In this document: piece after piece, positions 34,363 through 40,278 of the stretch
How positions within the stretch are numbered: position 1 is the first letter of the stretch
How the letters are laid out: each line of letters begins with the position of its first letter
DNA from: an uncultured Winogradskyella sp.
GTDB taxonomy: Bacteria; Bacteroidota; Bacteroidia; Flavobacteriales; Flavobacteriaceae
Direction: 5' to 3'
NCBI RefSeq assembly: GCF_947498345.1
Contig: NZ_CANMJY010000005.1
Coordinates: forward strand, 225,168 to 289,167
Length of the DNA: 64,000 bases
Notes under the pieces: model-generated
Databases searched by the model: none
Seen by the model: the letters and a program-made list of their open reading frames with translations, nothing else
Told to the model about the DNA's origin: nothing
Made by a program: the position numbers and the translations under genes

Positions 34363-34869
34363 ATGAAGTCTACAATAGTCTCTATATTATTAGTATTTAC
34401 AACAATAGGCTTTAGTCAAGATAAATTTGATTTTAATGAAAAAGGCCTGGCGCCAGAATATATAATAGCTGCGATTGATAGTATACCAAAAAATACCTTA
34501 TATAAAAAAACACTCAAGTGGATTAAAAGCACGTCTAATAATCTAGAAATCCAAAATAAAACTAACACTATACAATTTACAGGTATTAAAGACAATGCAG
34601 TGCATGAAGGCAAACGTTATTTTCATATCAAATACACCATAAAAATTAGCTTCGAGGAAGGATTATACAAGTTTAAACCTTTAAAAGTGCAACTAAAAGC
34701 CAATAGTAAATACGATATGGGCTGGAAAGCATTTGATCTTAAAAAAGGGGACATATTCTTTAAAAAAGGAAAAGTGATAAAAAAGTTTAAATCCTATGTC
34801 AGTGATATCCCTAAAATATTAAATGACTTAAACGCCAATCTTTATAACTATTTAATAACCGAAGATTAA
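34363..34869 (+). CDS. Secreted hypothetical protein (DUF4468-like)
   Basis: Signal peptide; LYKKTLKWI...IKYTIKISFEEGLYKF; stop overlaps the integrase stop (TTAA 34866-34869). Confidence 0.6.
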   Translation: MKSTIVSILLVFTTIGFSQDKFDFNEKGLAPEYIIAAIDSIPKNTLYKKTLKWIKSTSNNLEIQNKTNTIQFTGIKDNAVHEGKRYFHIKYTIKISFEEGLYKFKPLKVQLKANSKYDMGWKAFDLKKGDIFFKKGKVIKKFKSYVSDIPKILNDLNANLYNYLITED

Positions 34870-35699
34870 AGTAAGTCCAAAGGGCTTTTTATATTTTCTA
34901 TAAATGCAGAAGACACACGCGTATAAATTTGAGTGGTCTTTATGTCTTTATGACCAAGCAATTTTTGGATAATCCTAATATCTGTTCCATTTTCTAATAA
35001 ATGTGTTGCAAAGCTATGCCTCAGTGTATGAGCTGTTATATTTTTTTTCACACTGACTCTTTTGGTTGCCTGTTTAATGACTTTCTGCAAACTACTTTGT
35101 GTATATTTCCCACCTTTATGTCCTTCAAATAAATACATCTTAGGTTTATATGCTTTAAAGTATTTTCGTAATTGTAGTTTTAGTTTATTAGAAAGCATAA
35201 CAATTCTATCTTTTTTCCCTTTGGAGTTTCTTATGATTACAATATTTCTAGAGCCATCAATATCAGATATTTGTAGATTTAAAAGCTCAGAACTTCGCAG
35301 TCCTAAGCCATAAAGACAAGCCATCATAGCTCTATGCTTTATATTGTCCGTCCTATTTAACAATAATTTCATTTCGCTTAATGATAAAACTATAGGTAAG
35401 TTATCAGGCATTTTTTTTACTGAAATGGCCTTAAATCTTATCGTTCTATCATACATCTCTTGGTAGAAGAGATTGAGAGCACTTAAACATTGCCTTTGCG
35501 TACTAAAAGCCATGCTCTTTTTTGTAATTTGCAGATATGCATTATTTAGTAATTCTTTATCGCTTAAATCTGCCCATTTAGAGAATTGAAACAAGTTAGC
35601 AAAGGTTTTTAAATGCGATTGATAATTGTCTATTGTATTTTGGCTATAGCCTTTTATTTCTAATAATTTACAAAACTTGCTAATTTCTTTAGTTATCAT
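34866..35699 (-). CDS. Integron-integrase-like tyrosine recombinase (SAM-like N-terminus) lacking the IntI insertion
   Basis: YSQNTIDNY, GLRSSE, SKGKKDR, HTLRHSFATHLLENG, LLGH, TTQIY, C-terminal SPLD; ATG 35699 preferred over 35747. Confidence 0.9.
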   Translation of the reverse strand: MITKEISKFCKLLEIKGYSQNTIDNYQSHLKTFANLFQFSKWADLSDKELLNNAYLQITKKSMAFSTQRQCLSALNLFYQEMYDRTIRFKAISVKKMPDNLPIVLSLSEMKLLLNRTDNIKHRAMMACLYGLGLRSSELLNLQISDIDGSRNIVIIRNSKGKKDRIVMLSNKLKLQLRKYFKAYKPKMYLFEGHKGGKYTQSSLQKVIKQATKRVSVKKNITAHTLRHSFATHLLENGTDIRIIQKLLGHKDIKTTQIYTRVSSAFIENIKSPLDLL

Positions 35700-35825
35700 A
35701 TATATACTAATTAGACATAAATATAGTAATACTATTTTTATACTCAATTGGTAGTTAGAAAATTAAAAGCTATCATTTTAGTGCGCTATGGTCGTCTAAA
35801 AAGTAACTTTTTTATATTTTGGCTA

Positions 35826-35846
35826 TTATAAACTAGTTGGCTGTAA
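35826..35846 (+). other. attI-like primary recombination site (TATAAACTAG|TTGGCTGTAA)
   Basis: Upstream of the divergent recombinase; GTTGGCTGTA (35836-35845) is the exact reverse complement of the end of unit 1. Confidence 0.7.
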
Positions 35847-35948
35847 TTTAAAAGTCCGTTAACTAAACGAAAATTAGTGTTTACTCATTAGACCTTTTTT
35901 ACATAAACTAACTGAATTAAATTGGTATTGAATTTTAAACGGAGAGAT

Positions 35949-36479
35949 TTGAAAAAAATAATACTTCTGATTTTCTTACTCAATTGCGGAATTGGAATTT
36001 CGCAAACTGAATTTCCATTTTATGAACAGATTGCGTTTGACTTTTATCAATCAACACTAATCGATTCCTTTCCAACTAAAAAGAAAGTAAAAGTTTATCC
36101 ATACGCACTTGATTTTCAACCTGACTATTTTGTTTTCAATAACCCAAGCTGTTTGGGAATAAAATGGAGAAGTAATGAGCAATTTGAGCCTCTAAAAGAT
36201 TATGTCGAATCCCAAATGAACATTGATTCAGATAGATTTGAATTGGACTTTTCTAAACTTGATAAAAAGAAGTTTAAAGTAAAAAAAAGAGGAAAAGGAA
36301 GTTATCCAAGACTGCATATCACAGCACCAAATAAAGAGATTGATGGAACAGAACGAATTTTCGTGAATATTCACGAGACACACGAATATTTATGGATTAG
36401 CTATCATCTTGAATTTAATGAAAATGGAGAAATAATTAATTGGTGCAGGAATTATGCTGAAGTAATAAGAACATATTAA
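35949..36479 (+). CDS. Cassette 1: secreted hypothetical protein
   Basis: TTG start with signal peptide KKIILLIFLLNCGIGISQ; no recognisable family. Confidence 0.75.
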   Translation: MKKIILLIFLLNCGIGISQTEFPFYEQIAFDFYQSTLIDSFPTKKKVKVYPYALDFQPDYFVFNNPSCLGIKWRSNEQFEPLKDYVESQMNIDSDRFELDFSKLDKKKFKVKKRGKGSYPRLHITAPNKEIDGTERIFVNIHETHEYLWISYHLEFNENGEIINWCRNYAEVIRTY

Positions 36480-36486
36480 TAAAAAC

Positions 36487-36626
36487 TACAGCCAACAATG
36501 TGTATAATTCATTGCTAGTTAGAGCCTACTTACGAAAGTCCTCACGGACTTTCTATCTGTGATTTATTTGCTATTTTAGTGCTTAAACACGCAACGAAAT
36601 CATACACTAGACCGTTATCCAACATT
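36487..36626 (+). repeat. attC-like imperfect palindrome 1 (123 bp from AAC to GTT)
   Basis: AAC..GTT ends, gtgtat/atacac, ttc.ttgc/gcaa.gaa, central gaaagtcc-tcac-ggactttc (36534-36553). Confidence 0.85.
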
Positions 36627-36635
36627 CAGAAAACC

Positions 36636-36839
36636 TTGAGAAAACGAAAAATCATTGGAATTCATTTTTTGACTTTTATCATTTTGGTAACTATTCTGTT
36701 TTTCTCGGCGGAGCCTTTATTAAATAGATTCGCTTCTGGAATTCACAATGTTGGAATGTGGCTGAACTTAATAATTTATGGAACAATTGTGATATTGATT
36801 TTGACTATTATTTCGTGTCTGATTTTCCTAAAAAATTAA
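36636..36839 (+). CDS. Cassette 2 gene A: small two-TM membrane protein
   Basis: Hydrophobic ORF; the called start 36579 lies inside the palindrome, so TTG 36636 is preferred. Confidence 0.55.
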   Translation: MRKRKIIGIHFLTFIILVTILFFSAEPLLNRFASGIHNVGMWLNLIIYGTIVILILTIISCLIFLKN

Positions 36840-36843
36840 CTGA

Positions 36844-37191
36844 ATGAAAGAACGACCTATTTTGATTTCAGCAATAATCCTGACCCTCATAATTGAATTA
36901 ATTTTAATTATATTGGTTTATAACAAAATTGGAACTGAAAGACTTCCATCTCAAATTGGAAGACTGACTATTCAACTGATTTTAATATTTTGGGTTTTAA
37001 ACAGTAAATCCCATATTGGTTTATTTTTATTAGCTGCCTACCATATTGTTTCTGGAATATTTGGAATGAATTCCAGTGGCTCGGCTGAATTACTTGGACA
37101 ATTATTAATTGGATTTCACATTGTAATCGGATTAGTAATTTATTTTCACTATTGGATTGAGGACAGAATCGGAATCAAAAATGTTGGCTAA
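36844..37191 (+). CDS. Cassette 2 gene B: four-TM hypothetical membrane protein
   Basis: 115-aa hydrophobic ORF whose TAA stop overlaps the GCTAAC inverse-core site. Confidence 0.75.
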   Translation: MKERPILISAIILTLIIELILIILVYNKIGTERLPSQIGRLTIQLILIFWVLNSKSHIGLFLLAAYHIVSGIFGMNSSGSAELLGQLLIGFHIVIGLVIYFHYWIEDRIGIKNVG

Positions 37192-37321
37192 CAACGTGTA
37201 TAGCGCATTGCGGTTGAATTCCTAATCGGAATTCATTGCAATTCACTATCTTTCGGTTACGTCGGATAATCCTAACTGATTTTCCGCAACTAACCATACA
37301 CGAACACGTTAGCTACAACTT
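37180..37321 (+). repeat. attC-like imperfect palindrome 2 (121 bp from AAC to GTT)
   Basis: AAC..GTT ends, gtgtat/atacac, ttgcgg/ccgcaa, inner gaattcc/ggaattc; end motifs shared with palindrome 1. Confidence 0.85.
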
Positions 37322-37435
37322 AACCTCTCTGCAAACTACAATCAAAAATTTACAAATTTATGTTAAACTAAAAAAATAGTTATATAACTATTTTTTTAGT
37401 TTTTATATTAGTCTGAATATTAAATCTTCTACTTT

Positions 37436-38746
37436 ATGAAAAAAGTTATAATACTCATAATTGTAATAATTTTAAATTCTGCCTGTAATAAATTCAATGG
37501 CAATAGTGAATTAAATTTTGAATTTCCAAAAAGTAAAATGGGTGAATTTGCAAAGGACTGGTTCTCTTATATCAATTCCAGAAATGACAATTATTTATTG
37601 ACTTACGATAAGAACAAAGAGTGGGAAGATCATTTATCTATGATAAAAGATATTTCTAGTCGAGTAGATGGCATAACACCGTATCTTATTTCTTATGAAA
37701 CTGAAGATTTCATTTCTATTTATTCAAAAGAAAAAAAAGGGTCATGGATAAAGGTTAATTTAGGATTGAATAGTGTAAATGAAATTACTGCAGCTGGTCT
37801 TAAAAAAACATATAAACCCATAGATTATGATCTCCGAAAGAAGTTAACAATAAAAGAAGTTAAAGAGATTATCGCTGATGTTTCTGAAAATTTAAGAACT
37901 AACTATGTCATTGAAAAGTCAAGGAGTATACTTGCCAATGAAATAGATCAATTTATGGCCAATGGAAGATATAACTCTATCAATCAAGGAGATTTACTTG
38001 CAGATGTATTAACAAAAGACTTAATCAACATCAGTAATGATAAGCACTTACAAATAATTCCTCCTAGTAGAATTTTAGAAGTAGAAAGTAGATTTGGAAT
38101 TACTAAGGATGAATTAGATTTTAATTTACCATTGGGTGATGAAACGTTAAAACTATCTAATATTAGCGCAAAAGTTCTTGAAAACAATATTGGTTACATT
38201 AAATTGGAAAGATTCGTATCCAATCTAAAAACCATTAACGACACCAAAGATGCATTTTCAACTCTTCTTGACACCAAGGCTGTTATTATTGATATAAGGT
38301 ATTCTAGTGGTGGTGATGGCTTGGCAGTTGCCGACTTATTATCTTACTTCTTTAAAAAAAATGAGCTAATTGCAACTTTAGCTGAATTGGGTGAAATTTC
38401 TTATCCTGAAAATAATACTAAAATAGATAACCTAAAATCTAAATTTCTGAAAAAACCATTATATGTTTTAACCAGTTCAAAAACTATTTCAGCTGGTGAG
38501 GCTTTTGTATATTTACTCAAAGCTAAAAAAAGAGCTCTTATTATTGGCGAAAAAACAGCTGGAGCAGGATTTAGGGTTGATGCATTCAAATTATCTAATG
38601 GATTTTATTTCGTTAATTCCATTTATACGAGTTTTGATATTGAAAACGGTGAAGGATGGCAAGGCTCTGGGGTATTACCCGATATTAACCTAGATAAAGC
38701 TAAATCTTTGGACGAAGCTATATCAATAATCCTTAACAAAGAATAA
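37436..38746 (+). CDS. S41 family peptidase (lipoprotein)
   Basis: Lipobox LNSAC, NIGYIKL, IIDIRYSSGGD, TISAGE, IIGEKTAGAG, GSGVLPDI. Confidence 0.88.
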   Translation: MKKVIILIIVIILNSACNKFNGNSELNFEFPKSKMGEFAKDWFSYINSRNDNYLLTYDKNKEWEDHLSMIKDISSRVDGITPYLISYETEDFISIYSKEKKGSWIKVNLGLNSVNEITAAGLKKTYKPIDYDLRKKLTIKEVKEIIADVSENLRTNYVIEKSRSILANEIDQFMANGRYNSINQGDLLADVLTKDLINISNDKHLQIIPPSRILEVESRFGITKDELDFNLPLGDETLKLSNISAKVLENNIGYIKLERFVSNLKTINDTKDAFSTLLDTKAVIIDIRYSSGGDGLAVADLLSYFFKKNELIATLAELGEISYPENNTKIDNLKSKFLKKPLYVLTSSKTISAGEAFVYLLKAKKRALIIGEKTAGAGFRVDAFKLSNGFYFVNSIYTSFDIENGEGWQGSGVLPDINLDKAKSLDEAISIILNKE

Positions 38747-38817
38747 TATAACTACATCTAATTAAAATAAAACCTTGGCAAGGTATAACTTAAACTGAAA
38801 CAGTAATCAAACTACTT

Positions 38818-40278
38818 ATGACTACCAGAACCCTAATTTTAAAAAGTCTTATAATATTATTAAGCTTTTCAGCTTGTGGTCAAATATCCTCAAATCAAAA
38901 AGGAATATCTAATGATGTTAAAATTGAATCAAACTATTTAGTAAAGGATTTAGAAACCTTAAAGTTATGGATAGAAAAAGCACATGGTGATCCTTACCGA
39001 TTTACTTCTAAAGAGGCTTTAGATAGTCAATTCGTATTAGCAAAAAAGAAAGTTTTGGCAAACAAACAAATAACAGCAAACGCCTTTGCAGGAATAGTAA
39101 TGCCCATTATTGCAGAATTAAGGGACGGTCACGCTCAAGTATTTCTTCCAGATTTAGATAAGATAGAAGGAAACATAATATTTCCTTTAAAATTTATATT
39201 TATCAACAATAAGCCACATGTAATTTCTGTTTTTTTTAAAAATGATAAAGTGGAAATTGGATCAGAAATATTGGAAATAAACGGGCAAAATGTAACATCA
39301 TTTTTCAATGAGATTATTCCTTATTTACACAGAGATGGGAATATAGAAAATGTTAGATACAGACGACTTCAAAATCAAATCTATTTTACAAAAGTAATGA
39401 TTGCCCTTGGAAAAGCTAAAGCAACATACGTTTTAAAACTTAAAACCAGAGAAGGAAAAATCATAACAACCTCTATAAGTGGTTTAAGCCAATTAGAATA
39501 TAATAGTAAAAAATCAAAAGATAAAGCATCAACCACGGCTCTAACCTATAAAAGAATAGATACCATAGAATCAACCTCCATTATAGATATTAATTCGTTT
39601 AATCCTCATTATTATCAGAAAGGAAAGTTTTATCAAAAGATAGATAGCATTATGAATATTGTTCAAAAAGATGACATCTCTAATTTAATTATTGACTTAA
39701 GAAATAATAATGGTGGGGAAGACTCTTATGTGATGTACTTATTGAGATACATATTAAATGACGGGTTTGCAATGAGCAGTGAAGTAACTTTTTCTCAAAA
39801 TGATTATAAATTTTTGCCAGATGGTAAACATTGGGATATTGACCCTAAATGTTTTAAACCTAATGATAAAGGAAGTTATGACGCTACCGAATTCTTATGG
39901 GAAGAATATCCTACATTAGGTACATTTCTACCTTTCAAAACTCGCTTTGGAGGCAAACTAGTTGTATTGATCAATGCTTTTACATTTTCAGCTGCCTCTG
40001 ATTTTGCAGCTCAACTACAATTTCATAAAAGAGCAACTTTTGTCGGTGAGGAAACTGGCGGAAGTCGTATCGGAAATGTTAGTGGTTATGTTCCTACCTT
40101 AGATTTACCAAATTCGCAAGTGAAAATTAATTTACCACTGATGAGCATTAAAAATCCTTTTTTTAATTCTCACTTTTCTGACAGAGGTGTAATTCCAGAC
40201 TATATGCTAGAACTAGGTATAAATGACATTTTAAAACAAAATGATATCGTTCTTAAAAAAGCAATAAGCCTTTTTTAA
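38818..40278 (+). CDS. S41 family peptidase (lipoprotein)
   Basis: Lipobox SFSAC, DGHA, IIDLRNNNGG, TFSAASDF, VGEETGG, GVIPD. Confidence 0.88.
   Translation: MTTRTLILKSLIILLSFSACGQISSNQKGISNDVKIESNYLVKDLETLKLWIEKAHGDPYRFTSKEALDSQFVLAKKKVLANKQITANAFAGIVMPIIAELRDGHAQVFLPDLDKIEGNIIFPLKFIFINNKPHVISVFFKNDKVEIGSEILEINGQNVTSFFNEIIPYLHRDGNIENVRYRRLQNQIYFTKVMIALGKAKATYVLKLKTREGKIITTSISGLSQLEYNSKKSKDKASTTALTYKRIDTIESTSIIDINSFNPHYYQKGKFYQKIDSIMNIVQKDDISNLIIDLRNNNGGEDSYVMYLLRYILNDGFAMSSEVTFSQNDYKFLPDGKHWDIDPKCFKPNDKGSYDATEFLWEEYPTLGTFLPFKTRFGGKLVVLINAFTFSAASDFAAQLQFHKRATFVGEETGGSRIGNVSGYVPTLDLPNSQVKINLPLMSIKNPFFNSHFSDRGVIPDYMLELGINDILKQNDIVLKKAISLF

Follow-up and report, generated by a model that had tools for sequence, protein, structure and literature searches.

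The window described here is a stretch of 64,000 nucleotides from the chromosome of an uncultured Winogradskyella sp. of the Flavobacteriaceae. It contains a gene for a tyrosine recombinase on the minus strand, separated by a 137-bp gap from two co-oriented units on the plus strand. Each of these units, called cassettes below, ends in a structured site of ~130 bp that begins at or next to a stop codon. Integrons, which this arrangement calls to mind, are the textbook gene-capture device of bacteria; their defining mark is an integrase with a special domain for reading folded attC DNA. With a probability of roughly 0.78, cassette 2, the second unit, belongs as a mobile gene cassette to a platform for site-specific recombination that is integron-like. 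The same figure is given to the make-up of that platform: a divergently transcribed recombinase, an attI-like site, and two cassettes, each with an attC-like site at its end. The features are listed in Table 1.

Table 1. Features of the recombinase and cassette region, in window coordinates. A vertical bar marks the crossover point; R1 is a covariance model of the attC-like site; ORF stands for open reading frame.
Feature	Coordinates	Strand	Details
IntI-like / XerA-like tyrosine recombinase	34866..35699	-	277 aa from ATG at 35699
attI-like region	35700..35838	+	ends TATAAACTAG|TT; crossover between G35836 and T35837
Cassette 1	35837..36614	+	778 bp; one lipoprotein-like gene (35949-36479) and attC-like site 1
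attC-like site 1	36490..36620	+	right box GTT 36614-36616; cassette 1/2 junction G36614|T36615; R1 96.1 bits, E 1.3e-18
Cassette 2	36615..37308	+	694 bp; carries ORF A and ORF B
ORF A	36636..36839	+	67 aa, TTG start, two hydrophobic helices
ORF B	36844..37191	+	115 aa, four-helix membrane bundle
attC-like site 2	37180..37314	+	left box AATGTTGGCTAAC 37180-37192; L stem from 37196; right box GTT 37308-37310
TTAGCTACAACTT	37309..37321	+	right half of last crossover site; array end

Cassette 2 opens with G|TTATCCAACATT, so that GTTATCCAACATT occupies 36614-36626. The left box of attC-like site 2 has the reverse complement GTTAGCCAACATT, which means that the start of the cassette and the left box at its far end are complementary at 12 out of 13 positions. 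The next G|TT after the start is found at 37308|37309, and this sets the length of the unit. The TAA stop of ORF B, at 37189-37191, is within the GCTAAC of the left box. A first-pass annotation of this DNA had proposed this start, this left box, the position of the stop and the 12/13 match, and all of them are correct on re-reading. A repeat search of the window independently returns the same pair as inverted repeat I20, with 13 nt and 92% complementarity.

How much a match of 12/13 is worth depends on what it is compared to. Odds calculated for random sequence overstate the case, because box positions 1-3 and 10-13 follow the consensus of the family, GTT NNNNNN AAYATT. A stricter control is an all-versus-all comparison of cassette starts and left boxes within this genome. 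When cassette starts are compared to their own left box, which is the next one downstream, 13 out of 30 match at 12/13 and 21 out of 30 at 11/13 or better, with a mean of 10.2. The background, starts against all left boxes of the genome, is 1.1% at 12/13 and 2.9% at 11/13 or better, with a mean of 6.5. The corresponding binomial P values are 2e-18 and 4e-26.

The rule follows the integron pattern, in which a cassette opens with bases that are part of its own site. It had been claimed earlier that chance was very unlikely, and for the rule across the genome the odds are indeed overwhelming. For cassette 2 taken alone, they are ~100 to 1 against chance. One single mismatch recurs in the R boxes: at position 11 there is an A in the start versus a C in the left box, and this pair is a G·T on the bottom strand only. 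A G|TT crossover with a cassette 5' end that complements its own R'' is among the hallmarks of integrons; it is found here both in the own-box rule and in the breakpoints of a duplicated cassette, described below.

The sites themselves have a fixed architecture. Read on the top strand, there is a left box ending in ...NNNNNNAAC, a 3-nt spacer, a 16-bp L stem that starts with GTGTAT, a variable centre, ATACAC, a 6-nt spacer, and then G|TT. Site 2, which measures 131 bp as the end of its cassette, scores 103 bits against R1 (E 4.2e-20). With filters off, R1 finds no further sites in the window, where the next best hit has 15.4 bits and E 0.33. In the whole genome, a regular-expression scan followed by an nhmmer profile yields 57 of these sites, spread over ten contigs and grouped into at least 12 clusters.

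When 23 sites are aligned, AAC, GTGTAT, ATACAC and GTT prove to be invariant, with spacers of 3 nt on the left and 6 nt on the right; the centres are of several unrelated types. Run on this alignment, RNAalifold returns the L stem. For 5 of the 13 pairs, pairing is kept in at least one sequence that has changed on both sides. The alignment, this covariation and the R1 scores thus all display the imperfect inverted repeats of attC type, with AAC, GTT and a variable centre, that are expected of an integron.

Some sites depart from this scheme. Three of them (on contig C1 at ~212459, C4 at ~306745 and C11 at ~142644) have no left box, and carry a conserved TCTAATTTAATTGAAATACAAACTTAGGA, or some variant of that sequence, in front instead. 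This type of sequence may mark the border of an array or the place where a different element ends. Between genomes, cassettes with ORF B (loci L099 (G071:C8), L103, L104 and L105, compared to 37193-37300 of the window) keep the left box and have site centres that differ by host. It seems that site centres are swapped or homogenised separately from the gene.

The two strands of a site are not equivalent. At alignment columns 17/119 and 22/113, 22 of the 23 sites have an A·C on the top strand, which is a G·T on the bottom strand, and columns 18/118 and 21/115 are biased in the same direction. For 35 of 46 sites, DNA energy parameters give the lower folding energy to the bottom strand (Wilcoxon P = 7e-6). 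For example, in the reconstructed circular form of site 2 the bottom strand reaches -32.0 kcal/mol (z -7.0) and the top strand -26.1 (z -5.6); for site 1, these values are -26.1 and -22.1 kcal/mol.

This is what one would expect of a site whose bottom strand folds and serves as substrate, as in integrons, and the alignment suggests as much. The asymmetry of G·T versus A·C pairs is hard to explain by a duplex site or by an element of the mRNA. Rfam has no match for the element at E <= 1. A structured RNA or terminator was considered and rejected, given this lack of an Rfam match and a wobble asymmetry that favours the strand opposite the mRNA.

The attI-like region lies directly beside the recombinase gene. 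With the recombinase on the minus strand and the cassettes on the plus strand, the array points away from the recombinase gene and the adjacent attI-like region, as in integrons. A second attI-like copy of ~130 bp is found outside the window, at 298.2 kb on contig C5 (C5:298190-304317). It also ends in TATAAACTAG|TT, with no recombinase gene adjoining. Identity between the two copies stops right after GTT, and a different first cassette follows there. At least six cassettes run from this second copy to the contig end, and the third of these is an exact copy of cassette 1.

Cassette 1 obeys the same rule as cassette 2, its start GTTGGCTGTAATT matching its own left box at 12/13. The other copy, at C5:300462-301239, is identical over 778/778 positions, and is located 39 kb away inside the second array. 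At either end the match stops inside the shared GTT, and the two copies have unrelated flanks. The cassette is thus internal in one array and attI-proximal in the other, which is the pattern that excision followed by re-insertion at attI would produce. Its 100% identity to the other copy implies a very recent event.

There is a simpler view of all this, in which the 130-bp elements are dispersed palindromic repeats behind genes, like miniature inverted-repeat transposable elements (MITE), repetitive extragenic palindromes (REP) or terminators, and the 'cassettes' are just the ordinary genes in between. The elements are after all very abundant, with 57 in this genome and a presence in most genera of the family; they also sit just after stop codons and fold well. 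However, the left box of an element matches the flank of the upstream site (10.2/13) and not its own right flank (mean 7.2/13, with 11/13 or better in only 2 of 42 sites). This rejects the terminal inverted repeats of the MITE model. In addition, the exact 778-bp duplicate consists of a gene plus a site, bounded within the shared GTT, and the sites adjoin one family of recombinases in several genera. The absent Rfam match and the strand preference of the wobble pairs, noted above, also do not fit. Dispersed repeats are therefore barely credible as an explanation.

The recombinase resembles an integron integrase, and at the same time fails the feature that defines one. Its open frame extends on to a TTG at 35747. 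The best-scoring curated family is NF040815, the XerA / 'integron integrase' family, with 222.8 bits against a cut-off of 220, and relatives in the PDB are 4a8e and 5hxy. TIGR02249, the integron integrase proper, gives 204 bits, split into two stretches and below its cut-off of 265. In an alignment to VchIntIA (2a3v), query positions 28-201 correspond to 12-185, and 216-291 to 243-318. Both halves align well, including the C-terminal ...SPLD tail, while VchIntIA residues 186-242, the 57-residue IntI-specific segment, face only 14 residues of the recombinase. In integrons, this segment reads the extrahelical bases of folded attC.

The frame is intact, with no internal stops through the C-terminal catalytic motifs HTLRHSFATH, LLGH and IYT of XerA and VchIntIA. 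By tblastn, the genome has a single recombinase of this type, next to separate Xer-like genes with ~30% identity to it. Relatives of the recombinase are typically 272-281 aa long. Most homologues within genus and family have open frames of ~355-430 aa, longer than the 277 aa found here, and many point the same way as their array. Beyond the Flavobacteriaceae, the next-best relatives (40-46% identity) include Ignavibacteria, Paludibacter and many DPANN archaea (Woesearchaeota, Nanoarchaeota). The list of the best 120 homologues contains no Bacteroides proteins.

Several observations weigh against an integron-like platform. The recombinase fails the defining IntI test, as the I2 or additional domain is absent, and classical integrons are held to need this domain for recombination at attC (Messier and Roy 2001, as cited in PMC2426708). 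Clear extrahelical bases are not seen in the L stem, where the asymmetry consists of a 3-nt versus a 6-nt spacer. The sole mismatch between the start and box of cassette 2 (T versus G, at position 5) is no wobble on either strand. The array beside the recombinase holds only two cassettes. Finally, sites and recombinase co-occur loosely: some genomes have sites and no recombinase homologue at E <= 1e-40, and for some it is the reverse.

The first of these points would suit a different mechanism, in which this same recombinase moves the cassettes at duplex core sites, comparable to Xer/dif and possibly to the rAID-1 arrays discussed below, and where the palindrome merely provides two binding arms. 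An enzyme that lacks the segment for reading extrahelical bases, and that scores best as XerA-like, might well work in this way. The rAID-1 arrays, in the available text of their description, also pair a XerD-family recombinase with repetitive intergenic sequences, with no single-strand mechanism shown there (10.1101/471110). Against this, there are conserved A·C mismatches, G·T on one strand only, at no fewer than four positions; the bottom strand is the better folder in the large majority of sites, as given above; and a stem of at least 16 bp with compensatory changes far exceeds a core site of the Xer type. Recombination at duplex sites is accordingly judged unlikely.

The small array and the non-wobble mismatch could also mean that the array is a fossil, once built by this recombinase, with cassettes that no longer move. 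Many relatives do have decayed arrays or recombinase pseudogenes. Here however the frame of the recombinase is intact and retains its catalytic motifs, and the attI-proximal cassette 1 has the identical second copy that implies a very recent event. This makes a fossil highly improbable.

On the integron-like reading, movement would proceed as follows. The bottom strand of an attC-like site would fold into a hairpin, at which the recombinase would cut and exchange strands at G|TT. A cassette would then leave as a circle, with its first bases paired to its own left box, and could re-enter at attI or at another attC-like site. The predicted junctions of such circles are CATACACGAACACG|TTATCCAACATT for cassette 2 and CATACACTAGACCG|TTGGCTGTAATTT for cassette 1. 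We infer three things here from the patterns in the DNA: that this recombinase performs the reaction, that folded single strands are used in it, and that there are circles.

The sites are not confined to this genome. R1 matches all 24 sampled relatives within the genus at E <= 0.001, with up to at least 82 matches per genome and two genomes with a single match. At E <= 1e-6, it matches 241 of 300 sampled genera of Flavobacteriaceae. In 16 sampled other families of the order, four have between 1 and 3 matches. Homologues of the recombinase, at 36-60% identity, are found in 54 of 61 genomes of the genus and in 194 of 300 genera. In Ichthyenterobacterium magnum, Flagellimonas lutimaris, Psychroflexus maritimus and many Winogradskyella, these homologues are no more than a few kb away from sites. 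I. magnum has four sites by its recombinase, in the same divergent layout as here. Among Winogradskyella relatives, the recombinase can be divergent from the array or co-oriented with it.

The genes carried by cassette 2 are small, and both are genuine open frames. A longer, GTG-started frame of ORF A, from 36579, begins outside the cassette. ORF A has 16 clusters of homologues at 61-84% identity. ORF B has 104 such clusters, at 51-86% identity, in many genera of Flavobacteriaceae and in Bernardetia litoralis. The residues that are invariant in ORF B include E18, R33, R40, H67, H92, Y100, H102 and E106. So many clusters with invariant polar residues indicate a real gene under selection. ORF B runs into the left box of the attC-like site, from which its last codons (KNVG*) come.

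The AlphaFold model of ORF B consists of four long helices, with a predicted local distance difference test score (pLDDT) of 89.3 and a predicted template modelling score (pTM) of 0.83, and has no fold match in the PDB better than E = 1.7. The invariant H67, H92, H102, E18 and E106 are located within or beside the helices. Weak fold resemblances, far from significant, include the haem-binding membrane anchor of complex II. ORF B may possibly bind metal or haem through the invariant histidines, although confidence in this is low. The best guess is that ORF A and ORF B are two independent small inner-membrane proteins.

Neither these two nor the third cargo protein has a match in Pfam, NCBIfam, PADLOC or PHROGs, where no dedicated immunity profiles were among those searched. 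An earlier suggestion that cassette 2 might carry anti-phage genes thus finds no backing in these libraries.

ORF B is also patchy, being present in 4 of 96 other genomes of the genus and in 5 of 400 genomes of the family. Across genera, and in B. litoralis, which belongs to the Cytophagales, it is nevertheless 75-84% identical, and in B. litoralis it is followed by a 95.6-bit site. A gene this rare and yet this similar across genera and order indicates horizontal spread as a cassette. In this genome, cassette 2 has no further copies; what does have relatives here is its attC-like site alone.

The first-pass annotation had spoken of a two-gene cassette of small membrane proteins. This stands in so far as cassette 2 is a discrete integron-like cassette, bounded at G|TT, with two small hydrophobic proteins. 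It does not stand in so far as the two genes were taken for a pair. A fixed operon of A and B is rejected, since both occur with other partners: what stands upstream of ORF B takes at least nine different forms, and ORF A is followed by at least three different genes.

The contents are A + B in this window, an 80-aa ORF + A + B in Zobellia uliginosa and genome G113 (where ORF A is again directly upstream of ORF B), and Y, a 186-aa protein, + B in Aquimarina. In six other genomes, an unrelated membrane or soluble protein of ~70, 109, 132, 160, 175 or 195 aa stands before B. ORF A for its part precedes Y in a Joint Genome Institute (JGI) contig, and a 130-aa membrane protein in Flagellimonas taeanensis. 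Across a set of ten ORF B cassettes, the sequence from the start box to the start codon of ORF B differs, and conservation begins at that codon.

What these cassettes do share is their ends. All of them begin with G|TTACCCAACATT and have AACGTTGGGTAAC as their left box, or differ from this by one base; in the window, the class takes the variant form TTATCCAACATT / AATGTTGGCTAAC. The class has 87 copies in 48 of 97 genomes of the genus, compared to 12 for a reversed control, and most copies lie behind unrelated genes. The last gene of such a cassette ends in ...KNVG* whatever that gene is, because those codons belong to the box. Identical ends in other arrays had been put forward as a way to check the gene pair. 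They cannot serve for this, nor do they prove that two cassettes are the same, since the end class is common to many unrelated cassettes.

More generally, the extended R box falls into a few recurring classes across the genus, for example GTTGGCAAC, GTTGCCAG, GTTGTACAAC, GTTACCTGC and GTTACCCAAC, each of them common to unrelated cassettes. The box of the ACCCAA class supplies the terminal codons KNVG* of many unrelated proteins.

Single-gene cassettes of the class shared by A and B exist for Y-like and for 130-aa proteins, side by side in one genome. ORF B has also been found without boundaries: in Winogradskyella sp. PG-2 it lies at an array end that has decayed, with a truncated site before it and its own site absent. 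Two relatives of ORF B with 54% identity have no significant site nearby. From these sequences, A and B are probably independent modules, joined by the loss of a site between two cassettes of the same class. Neighbouring cassettes of one class would form a perfect long palindrome at the site between them, and the loss of this site would fuse them while keeping matched ends.

Downstream, the array is followed almost at once by a perfect AT-rich palindrome of 19+19 nt (37365-37402), which looks like a terminator that closes the array. A similar sequence is found at C3:288070-288114. Then come two paralogous genes for peptidases of the S41 family (37436-40278). By model R1 these are not cassettes, because no sites are found there. 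An array that continues up to 49215 is rejected as well, because R1 finds just two sites in the window even with filters off.

It may be asked why any of this matters. Flavobacteriaceae are a dominant group of marine polysaccharide degraders, and the site family is found in ~80% of their sampled genera. The cassette grammar is that of integrons, with a G|TT crossover, complementarity between a start and its own site, and a bottom-strand signature, and it goes together with a recombinase that has no additional domain. If the system is active, then this domain is not required for attC-type recombination, and a large accessory gene pool of marine bacteria can be read as cassettes. Shared R-box classes and mix-and-match two-gene cassettes would then provide a handle on how cassettes originate and fuse.

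A wider reading is that Flavobacteriaceae and some other Bacteroidota, like for example Bernardetia, harbour a second pervasive lineage of integrons, with an IntI-like recombinase without I2. The window would hold an intact and recently active platform of this lineage, with recombinase, attI and a first cassette that is an exact copy from a different array, and the small number of R-box classes would let cassettes fuse or exchange genes. The odds are somewhat in favour of this. If it is true, the long-open question of how cassettes are built becomes directly tractable by comparative genomics. No published description of these arrays in Flavobacteriaceae was found in a search that largely excluded subscription journals, so that a prior description is possible.

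The closest known systems are integrons and rAID-1. As in integrons, a divergent tyrosine recombinase adjoins an attI-like site, and co-oriented short genes are each followed by an imperfect palindrome with AAC ... GTT boxes. The crossover is at G|TT, and cassettes begin with bases complementary to their own left box. The bottom-strand folding signature, and the many arrays without integrase elsewhere in this genome, recall sedentary chromosomal integrons and clusters of attC sites lacking integrases (CALIN). Across genomes too, many carry arrays without the enzyme. The cargo is patchy, horizontally spread and without recognised function, as it is in integrons.

The differences are also clear. 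The recombinase here lacks the IntI-specific additional domain, which the integron surveys consulted all use as their criterion for IntI. The R box is 13-17 bp instead of 7, the spacers are 3 nt versus 6 nt, and the sites are ~130 bp. The L stem forms a long helix of 16 bp with hardly a break, in which G·T pairs occur and extrahelical bases are not evident. A few R-box classes are common to many unrelated cassettes, and in many relatives of this system the recombinase is co-oriented with the array. IntegronFinder 2.0 reported Bacteroidetes with only In0 elements and one complete integron (Salinibacter), leaving the phylum almost free of integrons (PMC9024848).

Xer recombination is a further system for comparison, since the best-scoring curated family of the recombinase is that of XerA. 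XerA or XerC/D however act on one short dif site per replicon, and not on dozens of structured 130-bp sites that bound cassettes.

Within the phylum, the nearest published relative is rAID-1 of gut Bacteroidales (Ross et al., 10.1101/471110). It too belongs to the Bacteroidota and has a recombinase of the XerD family. According to the part of that work available here, it forms one-directional gene arrays with repetitive intergenic sequences that its authors call reminiscent of integrons, and a structure that suggests active acquisition. The definition given in that text asks for a recombinase 5' of the array and co-directional with it, >44% identical to BF9343_RS08045, and the layout requires at least two downstream genes. 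In the window the recombinase is divergent, whereas many Winogradskyella relatives do have the co-directional layout; the two systems are compared here by description and not by recombinase sequence. The cargo of rAID-1 consists of T6SS (type VI secretion system) immunity genes, and none were recognised here in searches of general libraries. The available text of the rAID-1 description contains no boundary rule for cassettes, no model of a folded site and no G|TT crossover (10.1101/471110). The element in the window is an integron-like platform without the IntI domain.

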